A DNA stretch of 49,439 nt from Ignavibacteriota bacterium (GTDB lineage: Bacteria > Bacteroidota > Ignavibacteria > UBA10030 > UBA6906): assembly GCA_003157485.1 (NCBI GenBank), contig PMJQ01000042.1:17610-67048 (forward strand). Direction: 5' to 3'. The notes beneath the pieces are model-generated. The model did not search any database, was not told the origin of the DNA, and was given only the letters and a program-made list of their open reading frames with translations. The translations under genes and the position numbers were made by a program. Positions 25,106 through 43,525 of this stretch are shown one piece after another. Each line of letters begins with the position of its first letter. The stretch's first letter is position 1.

Positions 25106-25146
25106 GGCCATCACCCCCAAGTGGCATACGTGTGCGTTTCATAATA

Positions 25147-25176
25147 TTAGACGCACGGAGGGGCGGGTTTCTTACA
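25147..25176 (-). promoter_or_regulatory. ECF-type promoter TGTAAGAAA-N15-GTCTAA driving the 7-gene operon
   Basis: Same half-sites and spacing as the two copies at 43463-43492 and 43496-43525. Confidence 0.78.
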
Positions 25177-25200
25177 GGGGGACGCGGGGGGCAGAGAGGC

Positions 25201-25230
25201 AGCAATAAACAGTACTAAACAGTAATAAAC
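25201..25230 (+). repeat. Three tandem 10-bp direct repeats (AGCAATAAAC/AGTACTAAAC/AGTAATAAAC), likely a TF-binding array
   Basis: Exact 10-bp period; abuts TTGACA at 25231. Confidence 0.8.
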
Positions 25231-25259
25231 TTGACAAAAGACGGACGAAATGCTACATT
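25231..25259 (+). promoter_or_regulatory. Sigma70 promoter TTGACA-N17-TACATT with TGn extension
   Basis: Consensus -35, 17-nt spacer, TGc-TACATT; upstream of 25300 and 25535. Confidence 0.72.
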
Positions 25260-25299
25260 GACCCGGGCACCAGCATACTCAACCACCCACGGGCATACA

Positions 25300-25533
25300 A
25301 TGAAACAGCACGGCTTCGCATTCGTTGGGATCCAGCTTGCGTGGAACCTGCGCCCGTTTCTCGCACGTCGCGATGAACCGTACGCGCTTTTCAGGAACTA
25401 CGAGGGGAACTTCTACACCGCGGTCGTGTATTCCGTCCAGCAGCTCCTGGGCACAACGGAACGAAACGGCGAGGCGGTCCCTCCCGCCGCACGGCACCGG
25501 GCAGACATTGACACTACGGGGTGGCTCAAGTAA
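25300..25533 (+). pseudogene. C-terminal remnant of a Yip1-like ('actin-binding WH2 domain'-annotated) membrane protein
   Basis: FAFVGIQLAWNLRPFL...LFRNYEGNFYTAVVYSV is recalled as the conserved C-terminus of that family; the upstream TM region is missing. Confidence 0.6.
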
Positions 25534-25534
25534 G

Positions 25535-25762
25535 ATGACCGACGACGAGATTATGACGCTGGAAGAGGTTGCGGCATACCTGAAACTGAAGCCGCAGACG
25601 ATTTACACGTGGGCCCAGGAAAGAAAGATCCCGGCAGCAAAGCTGGGGAAGGAATGGCGGTTTAAGAGATCAATCATCGACCGCTGGATCAATCAGCATT
25701 TTGACCCGAAATTCAGCACGCTTGTCCACGGCCCGGACGAGAGGAAGAAGAAGCGGGGCTGA
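25535..25762 (+). CDS. Excisionase/BldC-like helix-turn-helix DNA-binding protein (HTH_17)
   Basis: IMTLEEVAAYLKLKPQTIYTWAQERKIPAAKLGKEWRFKRSIIDRWI. Confidence 0.92.
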   Translation: MTDDEIMTLEEVAAYLKLKPQTIYTWAQERKIPAAKLGKEWRFKRSIIDRWINQHFDPKFSTLVHGPDERKKKRG

Positions 25763-25783
25763 CGGCTGCGCCTGATGTTCCGT

Positions 25784-26233
25784 CTAACGAATGAGGGTCA
25801 GCTTCCGAGTTTGGACGAATTTCCCGGCTTCGAGACGGTAGAGGTACACACCGCTCGCCAGGTTCGGGGCGTCAAACCGGATCTCATGGAACCCTGCATC
25901 CTGGTCCACGTTTACAATCGTCGCAACGACCTGCCCGAGAAGATTGTGCACCGTCAGGAGAACGTGCGATTTGACCGGGATCGCGTACCGGATGACCGTT
26001 GAGGGGTTGAACGGGTTAGGGAAATTCTGCGCGAGATCATACTCGCGGGGGAGCGCTCCTGGCTGCGCGGACGGTGACCTGCCGGAGAGTGCTCCCTTCC
26101 CCTGGTCCGACCGTGGATCCGACGCCGGCTGATCATCCCGGATATCCCGGCCGAGAAGAGGGGACGCAGTGAGAAAGAGGAGGAGGAATACGGACAGGAA
26201 ATGAAAACCCCGGATAACCGACACGGTTGTCAT
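25784..26233 (-). CDS. Small T9SS type A sorting-domain protein (signal peptide + linker + CTD only)
   Basis: Signal peptide; LAQNFPNPFNPSTVIRY...LASGVYLYRL...TRKLTLIR; GGAGGTG RBS. Confidence 0.88.
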   Translation of the reverse strand: MTTVSVIRGFHFLSVFLLLFLTASPLLGRDIRDDQPASDPRSDQGKGALSGRSPSAQPGALPREYDLAQNFPNPFNPSTVIRYAIPVKSHVLLTVHNLLGQVVATIVNVDQDAGFHEIRFDAPNLASGVYLYRLEAGKFVQTRKLTLIR

Positions 26234-26349
26234 GACTCACCTCCCGGTGAAGTGGAACGACAATGGTACGCGAATCAGTAACACCGTATCAAGTATTCGG
26301 GATTCAGGATCTCCTTAAAAATGCGGGATGACAGAGCCCCTTCAAAAAA

Positions 26350-26378
26350 AATGTACTCATTTGCATCGGTCCTGTCAA
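26350..26378 (-). promoter_or_regulatory. Sigma70 promoter for the CTD-only gene
   Basis: Minus strand TTGACA-N17-TACATT. Confidence 0.65.
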
Positions 26379-26608
26379 GTGGGCGACCCGGTAAATTTTG
26401 CGAGGAGAGCACAGTGAGGCGTTTTCGCGCAAATGCGGCCAAACGCGCACCGCCTGGAGAAGCGTCACCAGAGGTTTCATCGCACACCTCGCTTGTCGGG
26501 GGAGAAAGAAGACGCCCCGGGGAGAGCCGGGGTGTGAGATTCCGGTCCCGCGACGTCATCCCTTCAGATGCAATGATGCCGGGGGGGGGGAAAATTGCCG
26601 GGAACGTT

Positions 26609-27679
26609 TCACGACGGGTTTTCACCAGACGGGGGAGCCGTTTTTCGGAACGGGTTGAATCCGATAAACCAGAAAACGGCGTATCCCGCGACAATCCACA
26701 CGGCTTCCTTGAGCCTCTTCACAGCGATATACGCCGCGGAGAGCGTGATGGGGTCGGGAAATCCGAATGCGACAAGAAGGGCCACGAACCCCACCTCGGA
26801 GGCCCCGATACCCCCCGGGAGAAAGAAAAACACAATCCGGAACAGCGAGGCGGTCGACTCCAGCGCAACCGCCTGCGTGAACGTCGCGTTCACGCCGAGA
26901 AACCGCAGGATCAGGAGCGTCTCGAAGCCGACGGCGATCCATGCCGAGAATGACAGGACGAGAGAGAGGAGGAAATTTCCGGTGTGGTCCCGGGCAAACC
27001 GGCCGACATGTTCATCAAGCCTCTGAATGTGCGGCTCCCCCCGCGCGAGAAGAGACCGAAGCGGACGGAACGGGAGGCGCGCGAGCCACCAGCTGAGCTG
27101 TTCCATCCGCCGACCGCTGAACGGGAGCGTGAGGAAGGCGATGGCAATGAGAAGCGAGAAGGCGACGAGGGCGAGACCCCTCGGCCCTTTTCCGGGACCG
27201 ACCTGCTCTGCGACGTCCGGGTAGAGGAGGACGACAAGCGAGAACCCTATAAGCATGAACACCGCCTGGGCAACCGCGATGTTGATCTTCATTATGATCG
27301 ACGAGCCGATCCCCTCCGTGATGTCGACGCCGCATTCCCGCTTGAGAAGTACAGGCCTCATCGGTTCCGCAACGGCGACGCCCCCCGGAATCGAGTAGAG
27401 AAGGGCGTCCGTCGCGGTCCGGATGAGAAAAAGGGGGCCGATCCCCGGACGGGGGTCTTTTCGTATCGTCAGCCGCCATGCGAATGATTCCGCCAGGAAG
27501 ATATAGCCGAAGGGGAGGAGAAGGAGAAACGCCATAGGCCCGATTCCCCTCACCCTTTCAGCGACGAGGGAGATCTGCATGTTCGAAAAGTAGTGCCAGA
27601 GGATTGCTGCCAGCATTGCGACAAGCGCGGCCCGCAGAATCCACCGCCCAATCCGTCCTCCCGTTTTCTTCCGATTCAT
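26609..27679 (-). CDS. Lysylphosphatidylglycerol synthase TM / UPF0104 flippase-like membrane protein
   Basis: Multiple TM helices; SIPGGVAVAEP, FFLPGGIGASEVG, VKRLKE motifs. Confidence 0.82.
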   Translation of the reverse strand: MNRKKTGGRIGRWILRAALVAMLAAILWHYFSNMQISLVAERVRGIGPMAFLLLLPFGYIFLAESFAWRLTIRKDPRPGIGPLFLIRTATDALLYSIPGGVAVAEPMRPVLLKRECGVDITEGIGSSIIMKINIAVAQAVFMLIGFSLVVLLYPDVAEQVGPGKGPRGLALVAFSLLIAIAFLTLPFSGRRMEQLSWWLARLPFRPLRSLLARGEPHIQRLDEHVGRFARDHTGNFLLSLVLSFSAWIAVGFETLLILRFLGVNATFTQAVALESTASLFRIVFFFLPGGIGASEVGFVALLVAFGFPDPITLSAAYIAVKRLKEAVWIVAGYAVFWFIGFNPFRKTAPPSGENPS

Positions 27680-27842
27680 CAGGTTTTTATGCAAATTGAG
27701 TCGCGAAAAACAGTGAGCGACGATCAAGAGAGCCGTCGTGCCTCAACAATTGCGAACGTACCATGATATTCCTTGACTTTGTTTCACTAAAGGTATAGTT
27801 TCGTTATGATGTTTGCACCTCTGACCACGAAGGAGAACGCGG

Positions 27843-28499
27843 ATGAAACGACCATATGTCATTCTTACTGCCTCGGTCATTGCCCTGTTATTGGCCTGCG
27901 GTTCGGCAAATGCGCAGAACCTTCTCGGACGCTGGGCTCTCGGGATCGACGTGGGTCCGAACTACTGGATCACCGACTACAATGACTACAGAGTGAGCTT
28001 CGGAGGCCAGGTGGTGGCCCGCTACGAAATCGCACGGTATTTCGGCCTCGGCCTAGCGGCGGGATACGAAGTCCTGAAGACCAACCAGACCACGCCGCTG
28101 AACCCCGGCGCATATGCATCGTACATCAAGGCCAATGTGATACCCGTATCGGTCGTCGCCTTTCTGCATTTCTTTCCCAGGAGGAGCGTCAATCCCTACG
28201 TGTATCTCGGCGGGGGGATGATGATGTACCAGCGGTTCGGCATCGGGACGGCGGATCCCGTTGACGGGGCCTGGCACTCATCATACGTGATCCCCGTGGG
28301 TTTCGGGGTTGAGTCCTTCCTGAACAACGACATCTCCATCGACGGCGCCGTCGGGTTTACGAACACCGCCAACAACGTCGACGCCCGCACCACAAGCTCG
28401 TTCAAGGGGTACGCCAGCGCGAGAGTCGGCATAAATTTCTATCTCAACGACGGCCCGGCCCGCAGACCGGCATCAAGACCCGCTCCTGTGAGATTCTGA
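27843..28499 (+). CDS. Outer-membrane beta-barrel protein (OmpA/porin-like, 8-strand)
   Basis: Signal peptide, amphipathic strands, NPYVYLGGG, ARVGINFYL; AAGGAG RBS; TTGACT promoter-like site at 27773. Confidence 0.8.
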   Translation: MKRPYVILTASVIALLLACGSANAQNLLGRWALGIDVGPNYWITDYNDYRVSFGGQVVARYEIARYFGLGLAAGYEVLKTNQTTPLNPGAYASYIKANVIPVSVVAFLHFFPRRSVNPYVYLGGGMMMYQRFGIGTADPVDGAWHSSYVIPVGFGVESFLNNDISIDGAVGFTNTANNVDARTTSSFKGYASARVGINFYLNDGPARRPASRPAPVRF

Positions 28500-28537
28500 T
28501 CCGGGATCTCTCCGGAGCAGCACCGCCCCACGTACGA

Positions 28538-28577
28538 TCTGCCGGAGGTGCATCACTGTCTGTGCGCTTCCGGCAGA
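28538..28577 (+). other. 15-bp GC-rich hairpin after the beta-barrel gene (terminator or stabiliser)
   Basis: tctgccggaggtgca ... tgcgcttccggcaga with G-U pairs; no U-tract. Confidence 0.4.
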
Positions 28578-28719
28578 CCTGCGCCTGACCCATCCATGCG
28601 GCGCGCTGACGGAGCGCGGTCGGAGTTCAGACCCTCCAATTTCCTTTATCGGCGGACCATAGTCAACTGAACCCTGCCTGGACCTCACAATTCGGTGACG
28701 CGCGCCGCAGGCTCGCGTT

Positions 28720-30315
28720 ATGACGAAGGACGATATGAAACAGCCCTGTACCTGTTTGACGATACTTATCGCGGCGATTCTCTGCGGATGTTCGCACACG
28801 GCGGTGCCGTGGCCCGCATCCGCATTTGAGAAGATCACCCCGGAGGACGTCCACAGAAACATTTTTTACCTTGCGTCGGACTCGATGATGGGGCGGAACA
28901 CCCCCAGCCCCCAGCTCGATACCGCGGCATCGTATATCGCGGCGACCTTCGCCCGGGACGGTCTGCGGCCGGTGAACGGCTCGTTCTTCCAGAGAGTCTC
29001 GCTGAACATCGTGGGACTCGGAGAGCAGAACGCGCTCCGGATCCGCTCGGGATCCGCGGAGCGGACGTACGAGATCAAGACGGAATTTACGCCGTTCGAA
29101 ATGACGGCAAACGGGTCCGCGGGCGGGCCCGTCGTCTTTGCGGGGTACGGCATCACCGCCCCGGAGTACAAGTATGACGATTATGCCGGGATCGACGTGA
29201 AGGGGAAGATCGTGTTCGTCCTTCGGCATGAACCCGGGGAAGAGGACTCCGCGTCGGTGTTCCTCGGGACGGCGCCGACGAAGTATTCCAGCGTGGAAAC
29301 GAAAGTCCGTATCGCCGTCGAGCACGGGGCCGCCGGCGTGATCGTGGCGACGGATCCGCTGAACCACGCTTCCCTGACGCCGCGGGGGTTCCCCTGGCCG
29401 TCTCTTTCCACGTTCATGCCGAAAGACGCGCTCCCGCTGACGCTTGCAGCCGAGGAGAACAGGAAAGTCCCTGTCGTGCACGCCGGGCCCGAGGTCGTCG
29501 CGCAGCTGTTCGGCAGCGTGGATTCGCTCAGGAGGCTCCAGCGGGAAATTGACGCGAGACTCGTTCCCCGCTCGGGCCCGATCGCGGGGACCGAGGCGTT
29601 CATCCAGACAAGCACCTCGATACGCGATATGTCGGCAAACAACGTCGTGGGGGTGCTCCCCGGGAGCGACCCCGTCCTGAAGTCCGAGACGGTCATCGTG
29701 GGGGCGCACTACGACCACTTAGGATACAAAAAGGAGCATGCGCCGGGGGCGCGGTACATATTCAACGGCGCCGACGACAACGCCTCCGGGACGTGCGCGC
29801 TTCTGGAGGTCGCGGCGGCTCTGGGTGGGCTCCCGTCTTCTCCCCGCAGGACCGTACTCTGCATCGCGTTCTCGGGAGAAGAAAAAGGGCTCTTCGGGTC
29901 CGAGTACTACGCACGCCATCCCCTTTTCCCCCTCGCCACAACGGTGGCAATGCTCAACATGGATATGGTCGGCATGAACGGCGAGGACTCGCTTTTCCTG
30001 ATCGGTGCCGAGGGGTCGCCCGAACTCGCGCGGATCGCACATGAGGAAAACGCCCGCGTGGGGTTCGTCCTTGTGGAACAGAAACTCACGATGGGAGGGA
30101 GCGATCACATGAGCTTCATGAAAAGGAATATACCCGACCTCTTCTTCCATTCAGGGCTCGAGAGCGTGTACCACTCGGTCAACGACCGGCCGGAACTCAT
30201 CAATACGCGCAAGGTTGCGCGCACCGCGGGCCTCGTGTTCCTCACGGCGGTCCGGATCGCGGCAGATTCAGCGCACTACAGATATTTACCAGTCATCAGT
30301 CCATCGTACCTCTAA
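28720..30315 (+). CDS. M28 family aminopeptidase with PA domain, probable lipoprotein
   Basis: ILCGC lipobox, LASDSMMGR, FAGYGI..DDYAGIDVKGK, GAHYDHLG, NGADDNASG, SGEEKGLFGS, NMDMVG, GSDH, YHS. Confidence 0.93.
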   Translation: MTKDDMKQPCTCLTILIAAILCGCSHTAVPWPASAFEKITPEDVHRNIFYLASDSMMGRNTPSPQLDTAASYIAATFARDGLRPVNGSFFQRVSLNIVGLGEQNALRIRSGSAERTYEIKTEFTPFEMTANGSAGGPVVFAGYGITAPEYKYDDYAGIDVKGKIVFVLRHEPGEEDSASVFLGTAPTKYSSVETKVRIAVEHGAAGVIVATDPLNHASLTPRGFPWPSLSTFMPKDALPLTLAAEENRKVPVVHAGPEVVAQLFGSVDSLRRLQREIDARLVPRSGPIAGTEAFIQTSTSIRDMSANNVVGVLPGSDPVLKSETVIVGAHYDHLGYKKEHAPGARYIFNGADDNASGTCALLEVAAALGGLPSSPRRTVLCIAFSGEEKGLFGSEYYARHPLFPLATTVAMLNMDMVGMNGEDSLFLIGAEGSPELARIAHEENARVGFVLVEQKLTMGGSDHMSFMKRNIPDLFFHSGLESVYHSVNDRPELINTRKVARTAGLVFLTAVRIAADSAHYRYLPVISPSYL

Positions 30316-30332
30316 CAAGTAAGGAGTCCCCC

Positions 30333-31178
30333 ATGCGCTTCACACACCGCAGCATCCTCATCGTCCTGATCGCCGGAGCGGCAGCCTGCGCTCCCGCGCA
30401 CGCGCAGGACCAGTTCACGCTCAAGTACACGCTGGAGAAGGGAAAAGCCTACCGGTTCGCCGATACGTCACTCATCAAATCCTCTCAGGAAGTCAACGGG
30501 CAGGAGATGAAATCGACGATCACCTCCTATTCCACGATCAGGCTCGTCCCGGAAGAGATCCGGGGGGACGGCTCGACGGTGTTCACGGTCTCCCCCGATC
30601 AGATGACGGTCGCCGTGAAAAACGCAAGAATGGATACGACAATCGATATCAAAGAGATGGTCGGCAAGCGGACCCGCATGACGGTCTCCGCACTGGGAGA
30701 AACGCTGAAGAAGGAGATTATCGACACGGTGCAGTACTCACAGCTCACCGCGTCGATGGGGCGGCAGGATCTCATCAGGCTCCACACCATGCCGACGAAG
30801 CCGGTGAAAATCGGCGAGAAATGGACCGCCACAAAGCCCGACACGAACGATGCGATGGGCGGGAGGATGGTCACGCTCTCCACGGGGGACTTTACTCTTC
30901 TCTCCCGGGAAAATAGACTCGGGGTCGATTGCCTGAAGATCTCCTACACCGGGAAAATGACGGTCAAGGGGAAAGGAACGATGAACGGGATGGACTTCTT
31001 CGTCGAGGGATCGGGAACCACATCGGGAACGTATTTCCAGGCTGTCAAGACCGGCCTGACGGTATGGGAGGATTCCAAGTACGACGTGGAATCGACCGTT
31101 GCGCTCACCGGTGCCCAGAACTTGACGATCCCGAGCTCGACGTCGGTCTCGTCGCACAGGATACTCCTGAAGGACTGA
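30333..31178 (+). CDS. Hypothetical secreted beta-rich protein (DUF6263-like)
   Basis: AAGGAG RBS, signal AHA|QD, LKYTLEKGKAY and PVKIGEKW motifs. Confidence 0.72.
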   Translation: MRFTHRSILIVLIAGAAACAPAHAQDQFTLKYTLEKGKAYRFADTSLIKSSQEVNGQEMKSTITSYSTIRLVPEEIRGDGSTVFTVSPDQMTVAVKNARMDTTIDIKEMVGKRTRMTVSALGETLKKEIIDTVQYSQLTASMGRQDLIRLHTMPTKPVKIGEKWTATKPDTNDAMGGRMVTLSTGDFTLLSRENRLGVDCLKISYTGKMTVKGKGTMNGMDFFVEGSGTTSGTYFQAVKTGLTVWEDSKYDVESTVALTGAQNLTIPSSTSVSSHRILLKD

Positions 31179-31200
31179 GCCGAGGCGACTCACCCCGCGC

Positions 31201-31431
31201 GTGATTCTGACTGTTCTTCTCACGCTCCTGACGTTCGACGCGCGGTGCGGCATCTCCCCCGCAGAGTACGCATCGCGCAGGTCCCGGCTCGCCGCGTTTG
31301 CGGATACGGATACGGCGTTCGCCGTGCAATGCCGCGGCATCGGAGTCCGGATCAAGGACGACGAGCCTGTCACCGAACGGGGATCGGAGGTTCTCACATC
31401 GGGAATTCCGCAGGAGCCGGCCGCGGTGAGA
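31201..31431 (+). pseudogene. Internally deleted Xaa-Pro aminopeptidase (PepP-like) remnant
   Basis: N-terminal ISPAEYASRRSRL joined almost directly to C-terminal GIGVRIKDD.PVTERGSEVLTSGIP. The metal-ligand Glu of RIEDD is Lys. Confidence 0.7.
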
Positions 31432-31464
31432 AGCTCGTCCGGAGCGGGACCGCGCAGCGGGCAC

Positions 31465-32376
31465 TCAAAAATTCTTCGCAAACGCCTCAGTAACCGTGTA
31501 GAGGAGCGGGGGGATTTCGTAGAGGGGTACCCTGAGAACGAGGAGATCGTTCCCGTTCACCCGGGCGTAGTGGACTTCGTACGAGTCGAATGACGCATCG
31601 GTGCAGACGGCCTGAAGCGCCGACGACGAGAACGGGAGGCCGAGCGAATCAGTTTCAAATGCGCTCCCCCTCGAGGTCCACAGAACGGGCCCGATGCCGT
31701 CCGCGAACCAGAGGGAATCGAGAAACGACATGACGGGCCCCTGGAAGAGGAGAACTCCCGCCGTGTCGACGGTTTCCGCACCGTACACCGTCCGCGTGTA
31801 GACGAAACAGTTGATGATAGGCGCTCCGAGGGCATGGATCCGGTCTTCCCCCGCATATCGCGTCACCACGCTGCGCATGACCCTGTCCCGGAGCAGGTGC
31901 CCCGAAGCCAGCGCGACGGTAAACGTCGAATCGTATGACAGAACCGTATCCGGCGCCGGGTTCATGCTCAGATCAATGAGCGTGCTCCAGAGAGGAAGCA
32001 GCGGAACGCGCCCGGATCTCTGCGACTCGAGATCAAAGATCTCCATCCCTCCCTTTCCCGCCGCAATCAGCACCGTGTCGAGCCGCACAGCCGAGCCTTC
32101 CGATGTCGTCACGCATACCGTGGCAACGGGGCCGGGCGTACCGACGGGGAGAGGACCGTTCCCGGAATATGCAAGGACGGTCACCTCATGCTGAAACATG
32201 GAGACCGGGTTGTGGTTGGCGTCGAAATTCCGGCGCGTGTACGAGATGGTTTGACCCGGGACAAACGCAAATGAGGGGGGGATCAGCGTGCCAGGACCAA
32301 GGGGGGTGTCGTTCCGTGTGCATCCTGATTGAGCGATGAGAAGCGAAACGCCGATGAATGCCGGGAAGCGAACCAT
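31465..32376 (-). CDS. Hypothetical lipoprotein
   Basis: LLIAQSGC lipobox-like signal; LWFADGIGPV motif; follows the redoxin gene by 6 nt. Confidence 0.72.
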   Translation of the reverse strand: MVRFPAFIGVSLLIAQSGCTRNDTPLGPGTLIPPSFAFVPGQTISYTRRNFDANHNPVSMFQHEVTVLAYSGNGPLPVGTPGPVATVCVTTSEGSAVRLDTVLIAAGKGGMEIFDLESQRSGRVPLLPLWSTLIDLSMNPAPDTVLSYDSTFTVALASGHLLRDRVMRSVVTRYAGEDRIHALGAPIINCFVYTRTVYGAETVDTAGVLLFQGPVMSFLDSLWFADGIGPVLWTSRGSAFETDSLGLPFSSSALQAVCTDASFDSYEVHYARVNGNDLLVLRVPLYEIPPLLYTVTEAFAKNF

Positions 32377-32382
32377 CGCGCG

Positions 32383-34023
32383 CTACCGGAGAGTGAGAAC
32401 GTTCGCCGCCTTTCCCGGAGGAGCATCTTCCGTCTCAGGGTTTGAGGGATCGAGAACAGGCGACCCGTCAACGATGAACCGGTAGTGATAGCGACCGGGG
32501 GAGAGCGTGACGCCGCGGACGAATTCCGAACCGCTCCAGTAAAGAGGAAGCCGCCGCCAGCCCGAGAAATCCCCTTCGACCTCTACGCTTCCCCTCATCT
32601 CTCCGGCAAACCGGAATTTCTGGTTCCCCCCGGCAATGAACGACATCATGGATGCGGTGTCGCCGAGCGCCGCGGCGACTGTACGGTAGGCATCCGCGCC
32701 GGAGAGCCTCAGGTTTGAAACGATCATTCCGCCCGGGTCGATCAGAAACGTCGCGGGGTACCCTCCCACGGCGTAGTCCCGCACCACGCCCGACGTGTCC
32801 GCCAGAAGAACCTGCGGCCATCTGATCCCGTTTTCCGCGGCAAACGACTGAAGAGGGGGACCGACAGGAAGGGCCATCCCCAGAACCTGGATCTTCGCTT
32901 TTCCGTACGCGGCGTGAATGTCGTTCAGGTACGGAATTCCCTCCCGGCAGAGATGAGATCCCGGATACCAGAAATTGAGGAGGACGTACTTCCCCCTGAA
33001 TTGACGCAGACTCACGTTCTCTCCCGTGAGCGTCCGGCCCTCGAATCCCCTTGCCGTGGAACCGACGGCGATCCCACCTCCTGCGGGGGCGGCCTTCTCC
33101 CGGCGGAGCGTCAGAGAACTCCCGTCGACCGTAACGTGCGAGATGCGAAACGCTTCATCCGCTATATCCACCATGTCGCCCTGATGGTACCTGAGGCACG
33201 ATGCCGGCGTGACGTCGCTGCTATCCTCTGCGGGAAAAAAGGCCTCTTCGTCCCCCCTTCCTCCGTATACGCCCGATTGAAATCCGTTGGACAACGCGCA
33301 CACGTACTTCCGATCACCGACAGTGAACACCCCCCTGCGGTACTCACACGTGCCGATGCCGAACACGATCTTCCCCCGCATCTCCTCCGCGCGTTCCGGC
33401 GGGACGTTGACATAGGGAAGGAGACGCACCGCGACCTCCCCTTCACGCACCTTTTTCCCGTCAAAGAAATCATACTCCGCGAGCGGCCTCTCGATCAGGG
33501 CGTTCAGGCTGTCCATCTGCGCAGGGGTGAAATCCCCGGGGCGGAACGGGGGGATGACGATCCGGTCTTTCCCCCAGAAACTGTGATCATTCTGCGTGTC
33601 AATAATGTACACGAAGTTCCCCTGCCCGTCGATTCCCGCGACGATCGGGATATCCTGCCCAATTTCCTTCGGGATGAGCCTGGTCGTGTCGTAGCCATTG
33701 CGTCTGATCAGATCGAGTGCAACAGCCGGATCGACGAGGCCGTTCCTGTATGACTGGAAGACGTACTGACCCATCTGGAGATTCATGTACCGGATGCTGA
33801 AACCGTGTATGTCCACGGGGATTCCACGGACTTCTGCGACGGCGCGCTCCCACGGGCCGGCGTTTTCCCCGGGGTAACTGAGCCGGATCACAGGACTGAA
33901 CGGGCCGTAGCCGGGGGCCCTGGTGAGGAGGACCTGGAGGCTGTCGGGGAGGGCGAGAGCAAGTGAGAGTGAAAGGGCCTGGACAGCCACCAGGAGACGG
34001 ACGTTCAATTTGATTGATCGCAT
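32383..34023 (-). CDS. Secreted TlpA/redoxin-domain protein with C-terminal CBM48/AMPK-like glycogen-binding domain
   Basis: FRGKYVLLNFWYPGSHLC, YAVGGYPATFLIDPGG; VEVEGDFSGW...GRYHYRFIVDG...DPSNP. Confidence 0.78.
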   Translation of the reverse strand: MRSIKLNVRLLVAVQALSLSLALALPDSLQVLLTRAPGYGPFSPVIRLSYPGENAGPWERAVAEVRGIPVDIHGFSIRYMNLQMGQYVFQSYRNGLVDPAVALDLIRRNGYDTTRLIPKEIGQDIPIVAGIDGQGNFVYIIDTQNDHSFWGKDRIVIPPFRPGDFTPAQMDSLNALIERPLAEYDFFDGKKVREGEVAVRLLPYVNVPPERAEEMRGKIVFGIGTCEYRRGVFTVGDRKYVCALSNGFQSGVYGGRGDEEAFFPAEDSSDVTPASCLRYHQGDMVDIADEAFRISHVTVDGSSLTLRREKAAPAGGGIAVGSTARGFEGRTLTGENVSLRQFRGKYVLLNFWYPGSHLCREGIPYLNDIHAAYGKAKIQVLGMALPVGPPLQSFAAENGIRWPQVLLADTSGVVRDYAVGGYPATFLIDPGGMIVSNLRLSGADAYRTVAAALGDTASMMSFIAGGNQKFRFAGEMRGSVEVEGDFSGWRRLPLYWSGSEFVRGVTLSPGRYHYRFIVDGSPVLDPSNPETEDAPPGKAANVLTLR

Positions 34024-35915: not shown

Positions 35916-35937
35916 CCGGGGGTCAAACCGGTCGCTT

Positions 35938-37947
35938 TCACCGGATGAGCGTGGGGAACACCGAGACGCGGAGACGCTCGCATCCCATCGGTATCAGCGT
36001 CACCGTTTCGACCGGGGCATCCATGCGAAGCGGGCTCCCGGGAATCTGGCCGATCAATCCGTTTGATTCCTGTTTCCACGCCGGGATCCGGGCGGCGCTG
36101 ACGCGCAGCTCAAGGGGGGCGCTTCCCGGCGCGAAAGGCTGGGAATCCAGCGGTCCCTCCTTCCTGACGATCTCCAGCGACCGACCGGGATTTGCCGGGT
36201 CCATACGAAGCCCGTAGTTCCACGCCGTGGCAGGGAAGACTTCGAACGCGGGCCATGCGTCCGTCCCCCCGCTCCTCTCCCAGCGCTCCCCGATTTTCAG
36301 CGCGTAGGTGAGAGGACCCCTGATTACAGAGACCGTATTCCCGTTCCCCTTCCATACCTTGACGCCGATCTCCTGCGGGAGATCCAGATGCACAACATCG
36401 CCCCTTTTCCACGGCCGGTCGAGTATGACCCACGTCCCGGGGCCGGGCGCGACGCCGGCGTCGGCGCCGTTGACAAGAACGCGCGCATGAGCGCACCAGC
36501 CTGGGATGCGGAGCGAGAGCGGGAACGCCGTTTCCCTTTCCGGCGCGATCGTGATGTCGATCGTGCCGGCGAACGGATATCCGGTCTCCTCCGTGATCGT
36601 GACATTCGCGCCGTTCCCGGCCCGCGCGGTGACCTTCGAGGGAGCGTACAGAACGGCGGCAAGCCCGTTCCCCGCCGCCGCCATCCAGAGGTGCTCAGTA
36701 AAATACGGCCAGCCGAACGCCACGTTGTGCTGGCAGCAGCGGTGGTACCACGGATCGAAGTAGAGCATCCTCCCGTCGTTCTCAATCATCGGCGATTTGT
36801 CGGCGCGGTCGCACTGTATCATGTTGGGCGCGGTGAGATAATGGAGCCCCTCCAGGTCCGGCGTCATCGACGCAGGGAGAGAATTGAATGCGACATCCTC
36901 GCAGCGGTCGGCCCAGACCGGATCGCCTGTGATGGCGACAAGCATCTCGTCCGAGTGCATGAACTCCACCATGGAACATGTCTCCGCCGCCTGCCGGGGT
37001 CCGGCGTAGCCGGGACGCGCGTTCTCGTCAGCTCCGAACATCCCGCCGGGGACCCGGCCGTACGCGGACATGATCGAATCGTAGTTCCTCACAGTCGCGC
37101 GAAGATAGCGGGTATCTCCCGTCTGCTGGTAGTATTCCGCCGGCTCCCGAAAACCCTGGCAGAGATTGACGCCGTGCCACGTGGGAATGCCCCCGGTCCA
37201 GTCCGCCGTCCGCTCGTGGTTCACACGGGCCAGGTCCAGAAGCATCGGGTCACCGGTATGGTTGTAGAGCCAGTAGATGTGGTCGAGGTTGTCCCCTCCC
37301 CGCCATTTCTGCCAGCTACCGGGGAGGAAGCGATCCAGCGGCACTGTCATGAGCCAGCGGGCATATGCAAGCATGAACGGGAGAATCCGTTTGTCTCCCG
37401 TCACCTCATACCGCGAGCGGAGGACGGAGAGCATGAGCATGTTGGGCCAGATATCCGGCGCCGTCCTGTTCGCCGCCGGCCCGAAATATCCCGTTGAGTC
37501 CTGGGTTGAGAGCACGCCATCCGTCCACCGGCGGGATTCGCCGATGATCCTCTCGTCGTCCAGAAGGTATCCGAGATCGATGAATCCACGGAGCCAGTAC
37601 GGGACCTCCTCCCAGCCGTTTTCCCTCCCCTTCCCCACCCACGCATTCCCGTCCATTTTGCACCAACTGCTTATCTCGGTAAGATGCCCGGAGAATCCGT
37701 CGCGCATCCGCTCGAGCTGCCCGAGGAGCCACCCCCCGGCACGGACGTCGCCGAGTGGGAGCTTCACAAGAGGGACGGAACGGAGGGGAGGACGGTTCCC
37801 GGGATAAAGCCCCTCCGCTCCGAGGGGAGGGAGTTGATCGACAACGCGCGCGCCGCCCCTCGCGGCGCCCGCAGGGGGCGCGGGAAGGAGGAGGAGGCAG
37901 AGGAGCGAGGCAGGAACTGACAGGCAGCGATTCAGTACCACCGGCAT
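35938..37947 (-). CDS. GH127-family beta-L-arabinofuranosidase-like glycoside hydrolase, secreted
   Basis: GWEEVPYWLRG, HGVNLCQG, AETCSMVEFM, RCCQHN, ETGYPF, LRIPGW, RGPLTYAL; GGAGG RBS. Confidence 0.88.
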   Translation of the reverse strand: MPVVLNRCLSVPASLLCLLLLPAPPAGAARGGARVVDQLPPLGAEGLYPGNRPPLRSVPLVKLPLGDVRAGGWLLGQLERMRDGFSGHLTEISSWCKMDGNAWVGKGRENGWEEVPYWLRGFIDLGYLLDDERIIGESRRWTDGVLSTQDSTGYFGPAANRTAPDIWPNMLMLSVLRSRYEVTGDKRILPFMLAYARWLMTVPLDRFLPGSWQKWRGGDNLDHIYWLYNHTGDPMLLDLARVNHERTADWTGGIPTWHGVNLCQGFREPAEYYQQTGDTRYLRATVRNYDSIMSAYGRVPGGMFGADENARPGYAGPRQAAETCSMVEFMHSDEMLVAITGDPVWADRCEDVAFNSLPASMTPDLEGLHYLTAPNMIQCDRADKSPMIENDGRMLYFDPWYHRCCQHNVAFGWPYFTEHLWMAAAGNGLAAVLYAPSKVTARAGNGANVTITEETGYPFAGTIDITIAPERETAFPLSLRIPGWCAHARVLVNGADAGVAPGPGTWVILDRPWKRGDVVHLDLPQEIGVKVWKGNGNTVSVIRGPLTYALKIGERWERSGGTDAWPAFEVFPATAWNYGLRMDPANPGRSLEIVRKEGPLDSQPFAPGSAPLELRVSAARIPAWKQESNGLIGQIPGSPLRMDAPVETVTLIPMGCERLRVSVFPTLIR

Positions 37948-37978
37948 CAGGTATTTCCTCCCGGGTGTATTGTCGGCA

Positions 37979-39049
37979 TCATTCCGACGCGGGGCAGCGC
38001 CGGTAATGGACTTCGGAAATGTCCCGGAGACGCGCCGCGGCGGACTCGGCTGTGATATCGCGCTGCGGGTTGGCAAGCATCTCGTACCCCACCATGAATT
38101 TCCTGACTGTCGCCGAACGGAGGAGCGGCGGGAAAAAATGCATGTGGAAATGCGACTCAGGATGTTTTTTCCCGTCCGTCGGGGACTGGTGTATGCCGGA
38201 GGAGTACGGAAACGAGATCCGGAAGAGGTTGTCATACCGGACGGCGATGCGGCGGATGATATCCGCGAACTCATCGCGCTCCTCCTCGCGCATTCCTGTG
38301 AGGCTCCCGTAATGGCGCCGGCTCACAACGATCGTCTCGAAGGGCCAGACCGCCCAGAACGGGACGATCACCGCAAAACCCTCGTTCACGCACACGATCC
38401 TCTCGGCGAGCTTCAGCTCGAGCGAGACGTAATCGCACAGGAGGCAACGGCCCCGGGCGCGGCGGTAGGCGAGCATCCGGCGCGCCTCCTTCGCAGGTTC
38501 GACAGGGACAGTCCGCTCCGCCCAGATCTGGCAGTGAGGATGAGGATTGCTGCACCCCATCATCGCTCCCTTGTTCTCGAATATCTGGACATGCCGTATG
38601 TATGGGAGGCTCCCGAGCGATCGGTATTCCTCGGCGAGCACATCAACAACGTTCCTTGTCTCCTCCCGGTCCATCTCTGCGAGCGTGCGGTCGTGACGGG
38701 GGGAAAAGCATACTACGCGGCTGACGCCGGCCTCCCCTTCGGCGAGGATCAGGCTCCCCCGCGTGTATCTTCCCCGCGGGGTCGACGGGAGGAGCGATCC
38801 GAAATCGTTGTCGAAAACGAACGTCGAGGTGTACGGCGGGTTTCGCGCATCACCCGCGCGCGCATTGCCCGGGCAAAGATAGCAGGCGGGGTCGTACTCC
38901 GGCTTCGTTTCAGCGGGGACGTCCTCCACCTTCCCCTGCCAGGGCCTCTGCGTCCGGTGGGGAGACACGAGGATCCACTCTCCGGTGAGAGGGTTGAACC
39001 GCCTGTGAGGATGGAGTGAAAGATCGAGCTCAGATTTTTTCCGCTGCAT
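37979..39049 (-). CDS. galT: UDP-glucose--hexose-1-phosphate uridylyltransferase
   Basis: [63 protein letters not shown]. Confidence 0.97.
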
Positions 39050-39050
39050 A

Positions 39051-41012
39051 TTATTCCGGTTTTATCGGGTTGAATTTGAGCGACCGCGCCGGGTCGGGAA
39101 TGCGCGCATAGAAATTGTACCCCCCGAAATTGTTCTCGATCTTGAGAAGGAGCCGGTTCCACCCCTTTACAAGAGGGAGGGGGATGCTCTCCTGGTCAGG
39201 CGAAGAGCCCCGTATCGTGAGGATCCTGTGGATCTCCTTCCCGTTGAGGAACACCTTGTTGCCGTCATCGCTCCCCAGGAGAAGAGGGAGAGTCTGGTTC
39301 AGCGGGGAATAGACAAACGTCAACGCATAGACCACCACAAGCTCGTTCGGTTCGAACGTCAGGAGATCGACGCTCCCGGATCCGGGGGTCGCCTCCACAT
39401 GCCATCGGACCTCCTGCCCTTCCGCACCGGTGTACGTATTTGCCATGCCGGGCTCCCGCTCCGGGGGATAGACGATGTCGAGCCCGAGCCTGTTCATCGC
39501 CGAGTCCCTCGGGTTCGGGAAGGGCCCGATAAGCGACCAGGCCGGGATATACTCCCTCCGGGGGCGCACCGCAAACGCGTCCAGGCCGACTTCATACCCG
39601 GACGAACGGGGATTTTTCCCTGTGATGACGAATTGCAGGGGGATCTCCCCCCCGGCCGCGGCGATGTCCGTCAGAGAGACCTTCCCTCCGGGAACGACAG
39701 ACCTGTCGTAGGCACTGAATGAACAGACCGCGCGCCCCTCGTGGAACACCGCGACGTCCCCATACGCCGGGCCTTTCGTGAAATAGACGTCCACGTCGTA
39801 CCGTTCCCCTCCCGCGGGAACCGCCAGCGTGAAACTCTCCTTCTCCTTCCTCCCGTCAACGCGGAGCTGTTTGAGCCCGCTCCAGTCAGCGCCGAATGCG
39901 GACATGTCTTCGACAGCGAACGGGAGGGCGGTCTCCCGCGGCGCAAGCGACTCGGCTTCGACGGCGCCGCCGGGGACCTGGACACGGAGCGGGATACGGA
40001 GGGGCGCCGGCATCATCTTTTCGAACGGGCGGTGCGGCTCCTTCTGGTACCAGTAGGCGGTTGCGCTGTAGTCTGCGACTTCCGTATTCTGATCTCCGTG
40101 TTCAATCGTTGCGAGTATGGACTTCCTGAACGGAATGGCGTCAAGGATGTGGAAGCGGTACGCCGCGATCCGGCCCAGCGAGTCGTCTTTCAGTATCAGC
40201 CCGTGGTACGGGGCGGCGAACTCCCCCGCATTGAAGTACCAGCCGCTGTTGAAATAGTCCTCCGTTCCGGTCCCCCTGATGGAGGCGGTTTTCTCCCCGT
40301 CCACAAATATCATCTCATCCCCTTCCAGGAACGAGAGGCCGCCGTCGTAACTCTGCATGCTCAGGTTGACGCCGACCAGGTGCCCCTCGCCTTCGGCCGC
40401 CAGTATCGTAAAAGGGCGGCCGCGGACGGTCCGGATCTCGCGGCGCCAGGAGGCGTGGAACTGCGCGACGGTGCTTTCGAGCGGCTCGTTCAGCTTCTGG
40501 TAATCGATGTGATAATAGAACGCGCTGATCTGACGCCCCGTCTCGTTGACGATCTCGATCCGCGCCGTTCGGTTAAACGGCATCGGGAAATAGGAATAAT
40601 ATCCGCCGCTCGACATCCCGACATACGGCGTTGCATAGGGTTTGTACATGAACCCGGTCCCGAAGAAGTCCCCGACGGGGACCTCCACGGACGGCGACTC
40701 CTCTCCGTCCCAGTACATTCGAAGAAGTATGCGCCTGAGGAAATACGGGTCGGAGGAGGCGATCGTCATCCAGATCATCGTGACGACGCCGGGTCCCTGA
40801 AGCTCCGCCAGGCGCGCGGTCGCCCCCGCGCGGACGGAGATGAAATCACTGTTCCCGCCGGTCGTGTCATTGCTCGAGACCTGTATGAGCCGGCTTGTCT
40901 TCAGGTACGGGAGCCGCGAAGGAGAAAGGATGTTGTCGAGCCCTGTCTGCGACCTGAGGACGGAAGCGGAGAGAATCAGAATGAGAAGGGCGCCGTACCG
41001 GAGTGGGGTCAT
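39051..41012 (-). CDS. DUF2961 / GH172 family glycoside hydrolase with C-terminal PA14-like domain, secreted
   Basis: Signal [10 protein letters not shown]; [56 protein letters not shown]; LGSDDG tail. Confidence 0.88.
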
Positions 41013-41047
41013 TGTAATCTCGTTTTCGGTTTCGTGTGCATCCCTGA

Positions 41048-41177
41048 CGTACCGGGAGGCGTTCATGAACCTTTTGAATCCGCCGTTCGCGACCGGGTAC
41101 GTATCGATATGGAACCGGTGGATCATCACCTCCCGGGGCTTTGAGAGCTCCGGGTACGGGATGACCGGCATTATCAT
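41048..41177 (-). pseudogene. Fragment of a formylglycine-generating enzyme (FGE/SUMF1) domain gene
   Basis: HRFHIDTYPVANGGFKRFMNASRY resembles F-x-I-D-x-Y-P-V-T-N...F..F..A.GY; in frame upstream of the GH172 signal peptide. Confidence 0.55.
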
Positions 41178-41284
41178 TCCGGAATCGGATGGTGCAACAT
41201 ATTGCGATTTTCTTTCATCTGCAATTTTTCCTCTGAAAAGGTTTTACTATATTCATCTTAAGAGTTTTCCACTCACGAGGCATC

Positions 41285-42442
41285 ATGACGCCGAAACAAC
41301 GATTTGTCACGACACTGACGCGGGAAATCCCCGACAGGCTCCCTGTCACGACGCATCACGTGATGCCCTCGTTTCTCAGAAATTTCATGGGAGGGGCGGG
41401 AAACGACGAGTTCTTCGACCGGTTCGGGCTCGACCCGATCCGCTGGGTCCCTTCATCGAAGGCGGATGAATCCCGCGGCGAGTACTTCGACCCCCTTCAC
41501 GTCCCGGGATATCTGGAACCGCGCCGGGTGGTCTCCGACAGGTGGCGGATACTCTCCGAAACAGTTCCGGGCCAGAAATACGAGACGCTCCGCTACAGGT
41601 TCGTCACGCCGAAGAAGACGCTCACGACAACGCTCCAGAGCAACGAACACACGTCGTGGGTCGTCGAACGCCTCGTGAAGGAAAAAAGCGACATAGACGT
41701 GATTGCCGAATTCATGACGGTCCCCCTTTGCGACGTGGCCGGGGTGAACGCCGTGGCGGAGGCGTACGGAGAGCGGGGAATGATCAGGGGATTCTTTCCG
41801 TCGTTCGAGGTGTACGGCCAGCCGGGGTGCTGGCAGGACGCGTCCGTGCTCTACGGGATCGAGGAGCTGATCATGGCGACATACGACGATCCGGAGTGGG
41901 TCCACGCGTTCCTTGCGATACTCCGGGGGAGGAAGGCGGCGTTCATCAGGTCGATGAAGGGGGCGAATTTCGATATCATCGAGAACGGGGGTGGAGACGC
42001 TTCCTCGACGGTGATTTCACCCAAGATATTTGACGCGTTTGTCGCGCCGTATGACGCCCCTCTTATCGCGCTCGCCCACGATGCGGGGCAGCGCGTTGTC
42101 TATCATACATGCGGCGGCATGATGCCGTTCCTCGAACGTCTCGCGGAAATGAAGCCCGACGCGATGGAGACATTCACCCCGTCCTCAATGGGAGGCGATA
42201 CAAGACTGGCCGAGGCGAAGAAAAGGATCGGCGGGAAAGTGACGATGATCGGAGGGTTCGACCAGTTCCACTTCTTCAGAGGCTGCACGCCGGAAGAAAC
42301 GCGCGGCGCGGTGCGCCGCTGCTTTGAGGAAGCGGGGCGGGACGGCGGGTACATACTTTCCCCTTCGGACCATTTCTTTGAGGCGGATCTGCACCTCCTG
42401 GAGGCGTTTGCGGACGAAGCGCACCGTTGCACATACACGTGA
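41285..42442 (+). CDS. Uroporphyrinogen decarboxylase (URO-D)/MtaA-like family protein
   Basis: MTPKQRF...PDRLPV, ISPKIFDAFVAPY, YHTCGG, IGGFDQ, GGYILSPSD. Confidence 0.88.
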   Translation: MTPKQRFVTTLTREIPDRLPVTTHHVMPSFLRNFMGGAGNDEFFDRFGLDPIRWVPSSKADESRGEYFDPLHVPGYLEPRRVVSDRWRILSETVPGQKYETLRYRFVTPKKTLTTTLQSNEHTSWVVERLVKEKSDIDVIAEFMTVPLCDVAGVNAVAEAYGERGMIRGFFPSFEVYGQPGCWQDASVLYGIEELIMATYDDPEWVHAFLAILRGRKAAFIRSMKGANFDIIENGGGDASSTVISPKIFDAFVAPYDAPLIALAHDAGQRVVYHTCGGMMPFLERLAEMKPDAMETFTPSSMGGDTRLAEAKKRIGGKVTMIGGFDQFHFFRGCTPEETRGAVRRCFEEAGRDGGYILSPSDHFFEADLHLLEAFADEAHRCTYT

Positions 42443-42489
42443 TATTGCCACTGCGGGGGCGGATCCCCGGAACGTGGCCCGGACACCAT

Positions 42490-42897
42490 TCAGGCTGAGA
42501 GCCTCGGGCGGAGCGCGGTCAGAGCGAAGAGCGCAACCGCCGCTGAAACAAGGAGAAACTGCATCGCGGTATCGGAGGGAGAATGAAGGAGCCCGCCGAG
42601 AGACCATGCGATCGCGGGGGGGAACCCGGCCGCAACTCCCCTGCCCACCCGGTTCAGCAATTCCCTTCCGGGTCCGACACACCGCCCCCCCTCACTCAAG
42701 GCCGATGCGAGTACTTCCTCCGGAACCTGAACTTCAGGCAGACTCCGCAGGCCGGCGTCAATCTGAAACATCGCACGCGCATAGGCATTGCACCGGGGGC
42801 AGTCCCGCACATGGAGTTCCGCTTCAGCCGCGAGAGGAGACCTGTTCCTTTCGTCCAGCCGGCGGTTGCATATTCTCCGGTACTCTTCGCATTTCAT
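42490..42897 (-). CDS. Zinc-finger (zf-HC2) anti-sigma factor with two TM helices
   Basis: MKCEE...LHVRDCPRC; ATGA overlap with the sigma gene stop. Confidence 0.85.
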   Translation of the reverse strand: MKCEEYRRICNRRLDERNRSPLAAEAELHVRDCPRCNAYARAMFQIDAGLRSLPEVQVPEEVLASALSEGGRCVGPGRELLNRVGRGVAAGFPPAIAWSLGGLLHSPSDTAMQFLLVSAAVALFALTALRPRLSA

Positions 42898-43439
42898 ATC
42901 TCGCCCCTTTCTCTCGTTCCCGCAAGGAGGACGCGGAGATGCTCCCTCCCCCTGTGCAGAAGGAGTCCCACGCAATCGACCGAAGTCTCGAGAATTGATG
43001 CGATCTCCTTGTATCCGTACCCGTCCATGTAGAAGAGTGTGATCGCAGCCGATTCCCGGGGTGAAAGCTTCGCAATGCACCGGGCAAGCCGTTCGCATTC
43101 AAGCTTCCGGTCGAATGCCTCTTCAAGATCCCCCTCCTCGTCGATGATGTACTGTATGTCGCCCGTCCCGACAAAGGAGATGGAATGGTTATGCCGCCGG
43201 CGCCTGTAACTCGTAATCGTGTTCACGGCAATCCTGTATATCCAGGTTCCCAGAGCACACTCACCGCGGAAATCCGGCAGCGACCGGTGGACACGCACCA
43301 GGGTCTCCTGAACCGCCTCGGCCGCCAAATGGGAGTCACCGAGCGAACGGTAGGCGTGGCGATACAGGCGTGGGGCAAATTCCTTCGCCATTGATCGAAA
43401 ACTCACTTCCGATGGGCGTTCCCCCCGGGCGGGAGTCAT
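42894..43439 (-). CDS. ECF RNA polymerase sigma factor
   Basis: Region 2 AAEAVQETLVRVHRSL...TWIYRIAVN; region 4 LSPRESAAITLFYMDGYGYKEIASIL...LHRGREHL. Confidence 0.93.
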   Translation of the reverse strand: MTPARGERPSEVSFRSMAKEFAPRLYRHAYRSLGDSHLAAEAVQETLVRVHRSLPDFRGECALGTWIYRIAVNTITSYRRRRHNHSISFVGTGDIQYIIDEEGDLEEAFDRKLECERLARCIAKLSPRESAAITLFYMDGYGYKEIASILETSVDCVGLLLHRGREHLRVLLAGTRERGEI

Positions 43440-43462
43440 AGGGAAACCTGGCTTTCACATTG

Positions 43463-43492
43463 TTAGACCGGAAAGAGCGTGAATTTCTTACA
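43463..43492 (-). promoter_or_regulatory. ECF autoregulatory promoter TGTAAGAAA-N15-GTCTAA for the sigma/anti-sigma operon
   Basis: Directly upstream of the sigma ATG; identical motif at 43496 and 25147. Confidence 0.8.
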
Positions 43493-43495
43493 TGA

Positions 43496-43525
43496 TGTAA
43501 GAAACCGGGCCCGTGACGAGTCTAA
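43496..43525 (+). promoter_or_regulatory. Divergent ECF promoter TGTAAGAAA-N15-GTCTAA
   Basis: Mirror copy 3 nt from the first; upstream of ATG 43550. Confidence 0.8.

Follow-up and report, generated by a model that had tools for sequence, protein, structure and literature searches.

A shared two-part promoter motif points to control of a distant seven-gene operon by an ECF sigma factor in an Ignavibacteriota genome

We analysed a 49,439-nucleotide stretch of DNA from an Ignavibacteriota bacterium (GenBank assembly GCA_003157485.1, contig PMJQ01000042.1), hereafter called the window, which is G000:C82:17610-67048 of a 4,115,744-base draft genome (239 contigs, 60% G+C). A bipartite motif, TGTAAGAAA-N14-CGTCTAA, stands before three sets of genes in the window: a pair encoding an extracytoplasmic function (ECF) sigma factor and its predicted anti-sigma factor, a divergent pair of small membrane-protein genes, and a seven-gene operon 18 kb away. 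We propose that the ECF sigma factor encoded at 42894-43439 recognises this motif as its promoter, and we put the probability of this reading at about 85%. It draws on the logic of ECF autoregulation, on comparative genomics and on analogy with sigma-E of Neisseria. The link provides a genetic handle on a predicted envelope operon that occurs across the order and four of whose proteins have no known family. The function of the operon becomes testable, because expression of the sigma factor or removal of the anti-sigma factor should specifically switch it on.

The motif and its conservation

The three sites and their predicted roles are as follows.

25147-25176, minus strand: P_op, predicted ECF promoter before the operon; TGTAAGAAA-N14-CGTCTAA; 35.5 bits, the top score in the genome; predicted start 25140/25139
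43463-43492, minus strand: P_sig, predicted ECF promoter before the sigma and anti-sigma genes; 27.9 bits; predicted start 43456/43455
43496-43525, plus strand: P_div, predicted ECF promoter before the two small membrane-protein genes; 31.6 bits; predicted start 43532/43533

These are the only matches to TGTAAGAAA-N15-GTCTAA in the window, and all three spacers differ. The original prediction had described three copies with identical half-sites, the same spacing and different spacers, and a pattern search reproduced its coordinates exactly. Each copy is intergenic and oriented toward a start codon. The intervals to the ATG, given previously as 23-41 nucleotides (nt), are 41 nt for g1, the first gene of the operon (ATG at 25105), 23 nt for the sigma gene (ATG at 43439) and 24 nt for a 38-codon open reading frame (ORF; ATG at 43550). 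P_sig and P_div lie back to back with 3 nt between their -35 elements. The copies are not repeated DNA, because their flanks have no extended similarity. Not one of 100 dinucleotide-preserving shuffles of the window gave a match (mean 0.00). Moreover, a scan of the whole 4.1 Mb draft genome returned only the three window sites, also when the spacer was relaxed to 14-16 nt; TGTAAGAAA alone occurs eight times.

The motif is conserved in the genus. A search for GTAAGAA-N16-GTCTAA in nine genus genomes found 22 sites in eight of them, and the reversed pattern, used as a control, found none in any of the nine. The ninth genome (91% complete, 790 contigs) lacks both the motif and a match to the sigma factor. 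The sites are the back-to-back pair before the sigma orthologue, plus one further site in six genomes (G003 has two further). All seven relatives that have a sigma orthologue carry the pair before it, one of them showing a single arm at this stringency; the earlier claim that the motif lies upstream of the ECF factor's own gene therefore holds at every orthologous locus examined.

The further site marks the operon. In five relatives (G006, G001, G003, G002 and G004) it is followed by orthologues of g1-g7 in the same order, with g1 57-86% and g5 52-82% identical, although the contig of G001 stops within g3. Together with the window genome itself (G000), the motif thus precedes the operon orthologues in six of the six genus genomes in which the region is assembled; G005, G007 and G008 are not counted, because the 5' part of the operon is absent from their g5-bearing contigs. 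In the genus, 15-51 kb separate the operon site from the sigma locus, a distance that the link has survived. On this comparative evidence the motif is a real regulatory signal. The membership of the operon in the regulon of the ECF factor, as originally proposed, gains support from the same six genomes; its extent has to be modified, as set out below.

Aligning the 22 sites gave the refined consensus TGTAAGAAA-N14-CGTCTAA, with C before GTCTAA in 18 of them. Both elements carry 1.3-1.9 bits of information per position, whereas the spacer carries 0.0-0.8. The reading of GTCTAA as an ECF-like -10 stands for these six bases as part of the element, and the alignment extends the -10 to CGTCTAA. All 22 sites have purines seven and eight positions past GTCTAA (+7 and +8), and therefore transcription likely starts there, at the positions listed above. 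A weight matrix built from the 22 sites scores the window sites at 27.9-35.5 bits; the next best site in the genome reaches at most 18.2 bits, once the sites of a related class, TGAAAGAAA, are set aside. That class belongs to a paralogous module, which we treat below.

The sigma factor, its anti-sigma factor and a precedent in Neisseria

Four genes make up the locus around P_sig and P_div.

42894-43439, minus strand: ECF sigma factor, 181 amino acids (aa); Sigma70_r2 9.3e-16 (residues 19-82), r4_2 3.1e-14 (residues 116-168)
42490-42897, minus strand: anti-sigma factor, 135 aa; N-terminal zinc-type domain (C3, H29, C33, C36) and C-terminal membrane helix
43550-43666, plus strand: m38, 38-codon ORF for a single-helix membrane peptide; 51-63% identical in relatives, 46% in the paralogous module
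43685-44146, plus strand: m153, 153-aa membrane protein with three hydrophobic segments; neighbour of m38 also in relatives and the paralogous module

The Pfam matches to sigma regions 2 and 4 bear out the original call of an ECF sigma factor at 42894-43439; factors of this type have these two regions only and measure about 180-200 aa. The protein also matches TIGR02937 (2.4e-27, above cut-off); no equivalog model of NCBIfam passed its own threshold. Among solved structures, its closest relatives are SigE of Mycobacterium tuberculosis (1e-18) and SigW of Bacillus subtilis (1.4e-14), with SigH also among them. Orthologues 56-86% identical occur in seven of the eight other genus genomes, one of them interrupted by a contig end. 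In a tree of 27 sequences the clade of the window sigma (support 99/99) comprises the eight sequences of the genus and one long-branch Solibacteraceae sequence whose placement is unsure.

The anti-sigma ATG overlaps the stop codon of the sigma gene (ATGA). Near its N-terminus the protein carries an HxxxCxxC motif (HVRDCPRC), and C3, H29, C33 and C36 are invariant in nine of nine aligned anti-sigma factors (six orthologues and three from paralogous or related clades, 24-63% identical). This signature upholds the zinc-type anti-sigma factor of the original prediction, with a putative zinc site, whereas a part for zinc in its release is conjectural. A profile of the nine-protein alignment has as its best solved match the anti-sigma domain of B. 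subtilis RsiW (5wuq_C, E 0.009), with the four zinc ligands aligned: Cys3, His30, Cys34 and Cys37 of RsiW correspond to C3, H29, C33 and C36. The NCBIfam antisigmaE model matches at E 0.0063, short of its cut-off, and the anti-sigma factor of the paralogous module reaches only E 0.46 against Pfam zf-HC2. Like the window protein with its membrane helix, RsiW is membrane-anchored. Regulated proteolysis removes RsiW, which also has a sizeable domain outside the cell. By contrast, the window anti-sigma factor stops a few residues past its membrane helix and therefore has no outside sensing domain. The promoter of SigW, TGAAAC-N16-CGTA, is also unlike the GTAAG/CGTCTAA type.

We modelled the sigma factor in complex with residues 1-80 of the anti-sigma factor. 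The interface score (ipSAE) was 0.77, compared with 0.00 for the best of three controls; the mark used for this score is attained by 58 of 80 solved complexes and by 2 of 110 mismatched pairs. The runs share at least 73% of their contacts, and the partner has a predicted local distance difference test (pLDDT) value of at least 77. On the sigma side, residues 15-47 and 114-172 make the contacts; in the model, regions 2 and 4 grip the anti-sigma factor between them. This pass may partly reflect likeness to solved complexes, because a sigma factor with its anti-sigma factor is a textbook pairing.

The promoter type has already been published for Neisseria sigma-E, and the regulatory logic is textbook ECF biology. 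In the portions of the literature drawn on here, the Neisseria meningitidis sigma-E promoter has the -35 element GTMAGBWTT (GTAAGGTT) and the -10 element CGTCTAAH, separated by a spacer of 12-13 nt (Hopman et al., PMC2893595). Both the Neisseria system, sigma-E (Ecf, NMB2144) with its anti-sigma factor MseR (NMB2145), and the window system thus combine GTAAG... with CGTCTAA at equivalent spacing (PMC2893595). A conserved A six nt downstream in the meningococcal promoters is the mapped start of gonococcal msrAB, according to the same portions (PMC2893595).

The parallels extend to the locus, as far as these portions describe it. Neisseria sigma-E is autoregulated, as we predict for the window sigma, and in both systems the anti-sigma gene lies directly downstream. 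MseR functionally requires Cys4, Cys34 and Cys37, alongside His30 (PMC2893595), and both anti-sigma factors have the spacing Cys-x25-His-x3-Cys-x2-Cys. The meningococcal regulon is described as its own operon and msrAB only (PMC2893595); the predicted window regulon is likewise tiny, with its own locus and one other transcription unit. There are also differences. The window sigma gene is divergent from the small membrane-protein genes, whereas Neisseria sigma-E follows a DoxX/DUF cluster in one operon, in the account available from that source. The window proteins m38 and m153 match neither DoxX nor any other Pfam family, and searches of Pfam, NCBIfam and PADLOC returned nothing usable for them. 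The remote target is an envelope operon, as opposed to msrAB in Neisseria, and the C-terminal membrane helix of the window anti-sigma factor is a further difference from MseR.

Neisseria sigma-E has been assigned to ECF group 13 (PMC7907618), a group since merged into ECF293 (PMC7826278, PMC8999054), in the passages of these papers used here. Judged by its promoter and anti-sigma signature, the window sigma appears to be an ECF13/ECF293-like factor with a minimal regulon. Haemophilus influenzae RpoE2/HrsE, described in the same portion of the literature as the closest relative of Neisseria SigE, also has a zinc-motif anti-sigma factor and a small regulon whose functions lie in the periplasm and the membrane (PMC7907618), features that it shares with the window system. 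Its reported inducers are hypochlorite and other oxidants, and it controls msrAB, mtsZ and a doxX cluster (PMC7907618); the window targets differ.

These comparisons suggest how the system would work. At rest, the co-translated anti-sigma factor would keep the sigma factor inactive at the membrane, clamping regions 2 and 4 with its N-terminal zinc-type domain. Release would allow the sigma factor to direct RNA polymerase to three promoters only. Activation of P_sig would raise expression of the sigma factor's own genes in a positive feedback, activation of P_div would yield the two small membrane proteins, and activation of P_op, 18 kb away, would switch on g1-g7 and possibly continue into two oxidoreductase genes. 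The anti-sigma factor might be inactivated when the thiols of its zinc site are oxidised, as happens in RsrA, by proteolysis, or through an interplay with the small membrane proteins induced alongside it. By analogy with relatives, we favour a cytoplasmic or membrane-level signal, redox or electrophile in nature, and rate its odds as even at best.

A paralogous module, other readings and contrary evidence

The draft genome holds 27 ECF-type region-4 matches above the Pfam cut-off. Contig C85 (G000:C85:72900-74800) carries a second copy of the four-gene module, in which the sigma factor is 36%, the anti-sigma factor 29%, m38 46% and m153 41% identical to the window proteins; its small membrane proteins, of 117 aa and about 136 aa, are again divergent from the sigma gene. 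Its promoters are a back-to-back pair of TGAAAGAA(A/T)-N15-GTCTAA, one -35 base from TGTAAGAAA. A third TGAAAGAAA-class site, on C108 (G000:C108:1-2800), stands before two genes, the first for a glyoxalase-domain protein and the second for RNase II (RNB), and G006 likewise has a third such site before a glyoxalase-RNB pair. One genome thus holds two near-identical ECF promoters, apparently separated by a single base.

The pattern GAAAGAA-N16-GTCTAA has nine sites in the nine genus genomes, all of them in the four genomes that have the paralogue and none in the other five; single matches may be chance, because the reversed control gave four in the nine genomes. Every one of the six operon promoters has the TGTAAGAAA form, also in G000, G002 and G006, which have both sigma factors. 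In the sigma tree the paralogue clade groups with an Ignavibacteriota metagenome-assembled genome (MAG) whose locus has a TGAAAGAAA pair. Position 3 of the -35 element therefore tracks which sigma factor is present, which argues that the window sigma, not the paralogue, is cognate. It also suggests, on sequence grounds, that one -35 base insulates two ECF systems.

The original prediction had allowed that another ECF factor in the genome might be cognate, and the paralogue is a candidate for the true activator of the operon, alone or jointly with the window sigma, acting through promoter types that are not insulated from each other. The single base between the two -35 elements speaks for it, as does the glyoxalase-RNB operon, which carries the TGTAAGAAA form in G003 and the TGAAAGAAA form in G000 and G006, so that targets can move between classes; in G003 (99% complete) no paralogous sigma was found at E<=1e-20. 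However, the paralogue is not the likelier regulator of the operon, because it uses its own TGAAAGAAA promoter and targets a different operon. Furthermore, the operon keeps the TGTAAGAAA type even where both sigma factors exist, the GAAAGAA form is confined to paralogue-bearing genomes, and each sigma clade retains its own -35 variant before its own gene. We regard control by the paralogue as unlikely.

A different kind of regulator fares worse. The two -35 elements of P_sig and P_div form a perfect palindrome, a 9-bp inverted repeat TTTCTTACA-N3-TGTAAGAAA, and its gap is fixed at 3 nt in the window and at the orthologous loci with both arms. This would suit the operator of a dimeric regulator, with GTCTAA incidental. 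However, the operon site is a lone half-site without a palindrome, and GTCTAA stands at the identical distance from it in six of six genomes. In the more distant relative G028 the arms are far apart, each with its own GTCTAA at N15. Moreover, the bipartite pattern is that of a published ECF promoter. A dimer operator is thus very improbable. Nothing was found in favour of a non-regulatory origin of the three copies, by chance matching or as leftovers of a small repeat. This reading deserves mention only since the match is short (15 specified bases), and it has next to no probability given the empty shuffles, the absence of the motif from the rest of the 4.1 Mb genome, and its retention at orthologous positions across species whose proteins are 52-86% identical and whose spacers and flanks are unrelated.

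Promoter recognition by the window sigma thus remains the preferred reading, and we asked how far it reaches. Of 201 genomes sampled across the order, 40 carry g5, and the operon was recognisable in 12 loci fetched from other genera. Three of these (G009, G024 and G028) have an ECF factor of the same family and homologues of m38 and m153 beside the operon. In G009, the sigma gene, the anti-sigma gene, a g3-like gene, g5 and g7 are all co-directional. In G024, sigma and anti-sigma genes lie a few kb upstream of the operon. In G028, the sigma gene is divergent from small ORFs that lead into g1-g7, and the divergent ECF promoter points into the operon. The operon-adjacent ECF loci carry promoter variants of the same geometry, CCGAAGAAA-N15-GTCTAA and TGCAATAAA-N15-GTCTAA, and the sigma tree leaves the operon-adjacent sigma factors of other genera unplaced between orthology to the window sigma and to the paralogue. 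Control of the operon by this ECF family is recurrent, not universal.

The promoter type itself extends beyond the lineage of the window, because an ECF locus in a Solibacteraceae (acidobacterial) MAG has it: in L074, at 2882-2910, TGTAAGAAA-N14-GTCTAA lies about 90 nt before an ECF sigma gene, with a spacer one base shorter. This MAG and the Ignavibacteriota MAG with the TGAAAGAAA pair are the two loci with a related motif among the best 80 in a scan with a sigma profile (a generic peptide pattern), in which the best named matches were 28-44% identical.

RNA evidence was confined to metatranscriptome contigs with parts of the window (wetland, peat and bioreactor; shares of at most 0.10). Those of four runs, aligned to 24400-44300, are read-length pieces and uninformative on starts and strands; none of our claims on binding or expression draws on them. 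Two studies yielded fragments over the sigma gene that are identical to the window, and one study did so for g2.

Four observations count against recognition of these promoters by the window sigma. First, Pfam zf-HC2 (PF13490) does not match the anti-sigma factor at E<=5, and the best solved match is weak (E 0.009). Second, in both studies the 100%-identical sigma-gene fragments (within 43338-43489) end at 43488/43489, inside the -35 element of P_sig and 33 nt upstream of the predicted start (43455/6). Carried-over DNA could explain this end, as could an additional promoter farther upstream that maintains basal expression, and it slightly weakens the idea of a single promoter; a look upstream of it revealed no convincing housekeeping promoter. 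Third, the genome holds the 27 ECF-type region-4 matches mentioned above, and some cross-talk is conceivable, given a 36%-identical paralogue whose promoter differs by one base. Fourth, nine of the 12 distant operon loci have no nearby ECF gene, and no such motif precedes g1 in nine distant relatives. The link between ECF factor and operon is lineage-specific, because most distant operon loci lack a nearby ECF gene or motif.

The operon and its surroundings

The operon downstream of P_op reads as follows, continuing to the first strong terminator on its strand.

24704-25105, minus strand: g1, 133-aa lipoprotein; LLLSGC lipobox; 57-86% identical in the genus
23862-24701, minus strand: g2, lipoprotein; LILLSGC lipobox; likely start 24701, two bases past the g1 stop
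23132-23815, minus strand: g3, secreted protein of 227 aa with long helical hairpins and a small sheet; model pLDDT 76
22062-23135, minus strand: g4, 357-aa cytoplasmic protein; no Pfam match
20386-22035, minus strand: g5, 549 aa, YdjM-type membrane domain fused to a periplasmic-adaptor-like region; Pfam YdjM 1.3e-26
19597-20379, minus strand: g6, RadA/Sms-like zinc ribbon and RecA/KaiC-type ATPase without the Lon-like domain; TIGR00416 4.7e-58 (profile positions 8-277 of 454), Pfam KaiC 1.4e-16
18604-19593, minus strand: g7, AAA_16/STAND-like ATPase (Pfam) with a C-terminal membrane helix
17538-18485, minus strand: aldo/keto reductase (Pfam), after a 118-nt gap from g7
16501-17529, minus strand: zinc alcohol dehydrogenase (Pfam)
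16460-16436, minus strand: strong intrinsic terminator, 11-pair stem and T-run

The original prediction had an operon of seven genes. The transcription unit may hold nine, because the first strong terminator lies at 16460-16436. The two oxidoreductase genes are syntenic with the operon in four relatives; in other genera they are not adjacent to it.

Searches of Pfam, NCBIfam and PADLOC gave no usable family for g1-g4. In an Atlas search, g4 retrieved PatA_N/DUF2226 clusters at 0.91, which is a lead only. For g3, the top Foldseek matches in the Protein Data Bank (PDB) are TOprJ, TolC, CusC and OprM, which are not significant (E 0.2-0.5, query template-modelling (TM) score 0.42-0.54), and there is no OEP Pfam match. 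As a lead only, the g3 model resembles one repeat, or half, of a TolC-family protomer, which consists of two helix-strand-strand-helix repeats and whose trimer forms the channel.

The model of g5 (pLDDT 75, predicted TM score 0.40) combines a membrane domain of helices with a beta-rich middle and an extended helical hairpin. Periplasmic adaptors are characterised by an alpha-hairpin together with a lipoyl/beta-barrel fold. Its C-terminal two thirds match the adaptors EmrA (1.8e-5), MacA (2.0e-5) and HlyD (2.6e-4) in Foldseek, with neighbours to 4e-4, at query TM scores of only 0.12-0.24; g5 has no HlyD match in Pfam. The genome has a further RadA-like gene, 38% identical to g6, on a different contig. 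PADLOC 'mads' matches for g6 and g7 were rejected, as only the P-loop was covered.

These models recall tripartite efflux and type I secretion systems, with g5 possibly like their adaptors and g3 nearest, though without significance, their TolC-family channels. The differences are considerable. Known adaptors work with an ABC, RND or MFS pump, whereas the adaptor-like region of g5 is fused to a YdjM-type domain; a TolC protomer is twice as large as g3; and the ATPases of the operon are RadA/KaiC-like and AAA_16-like, not ABC. Two lipoproteins, two ATPases, one of them membrane-anchored, and the models of g3 and g5 together suggest that the operon encodes an envelope-spanning assembly.

The pieces can be joined into one picture. 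The genome would hold two ECF293-like modules, with -35 elements TGTAAGAAA and TGAAAGAAA one base apart and one remote operon each. The TGTAAGAAA module would command an undescribed ATP-driven envelope-spanning machine built from a half-TolC-like protein, a YdjM-adaptor, and RadA-like and membrane-anchored AAA ATPases, and the small membrane proteins would sense on behalf of the anti-sigma factor. We offer this composite tentatively, and as a whole it is rather doubtful.

Some observations concern the surroundings of these loci. An HTH_17 (excisionase-like) gene at 25231-25762 (plus strand) is divergent from the operon and has, at 25231-25259, a good sigma-70-like promoter: TTGACA-17-TACATT, preceded by TG. 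Elsewhere in the order, in other families (L144-L147 and L152), the stretch immediately before g1 resembles the end of another conserved coding region and not an intergenic promoter. The first gene beyond the terminator (16436) encodes an AcrB-type RND pump (13211-16414, minus strand; Pfam 2.1e-263) and is followed by two more co-directional ORFs (region 10627-16414, minus strand) that are probably the remaining parts of an efflux system. The window proteins encoded at 25784-26233 and 44549-46711 carry Por_Secre_tail, the C-terminal sorting domain of type IX secretion; tblastn matches to this domain occur on dozens of contigs of the genome, which fits a Bacteroidota/Ignavibacteriota-related organism.

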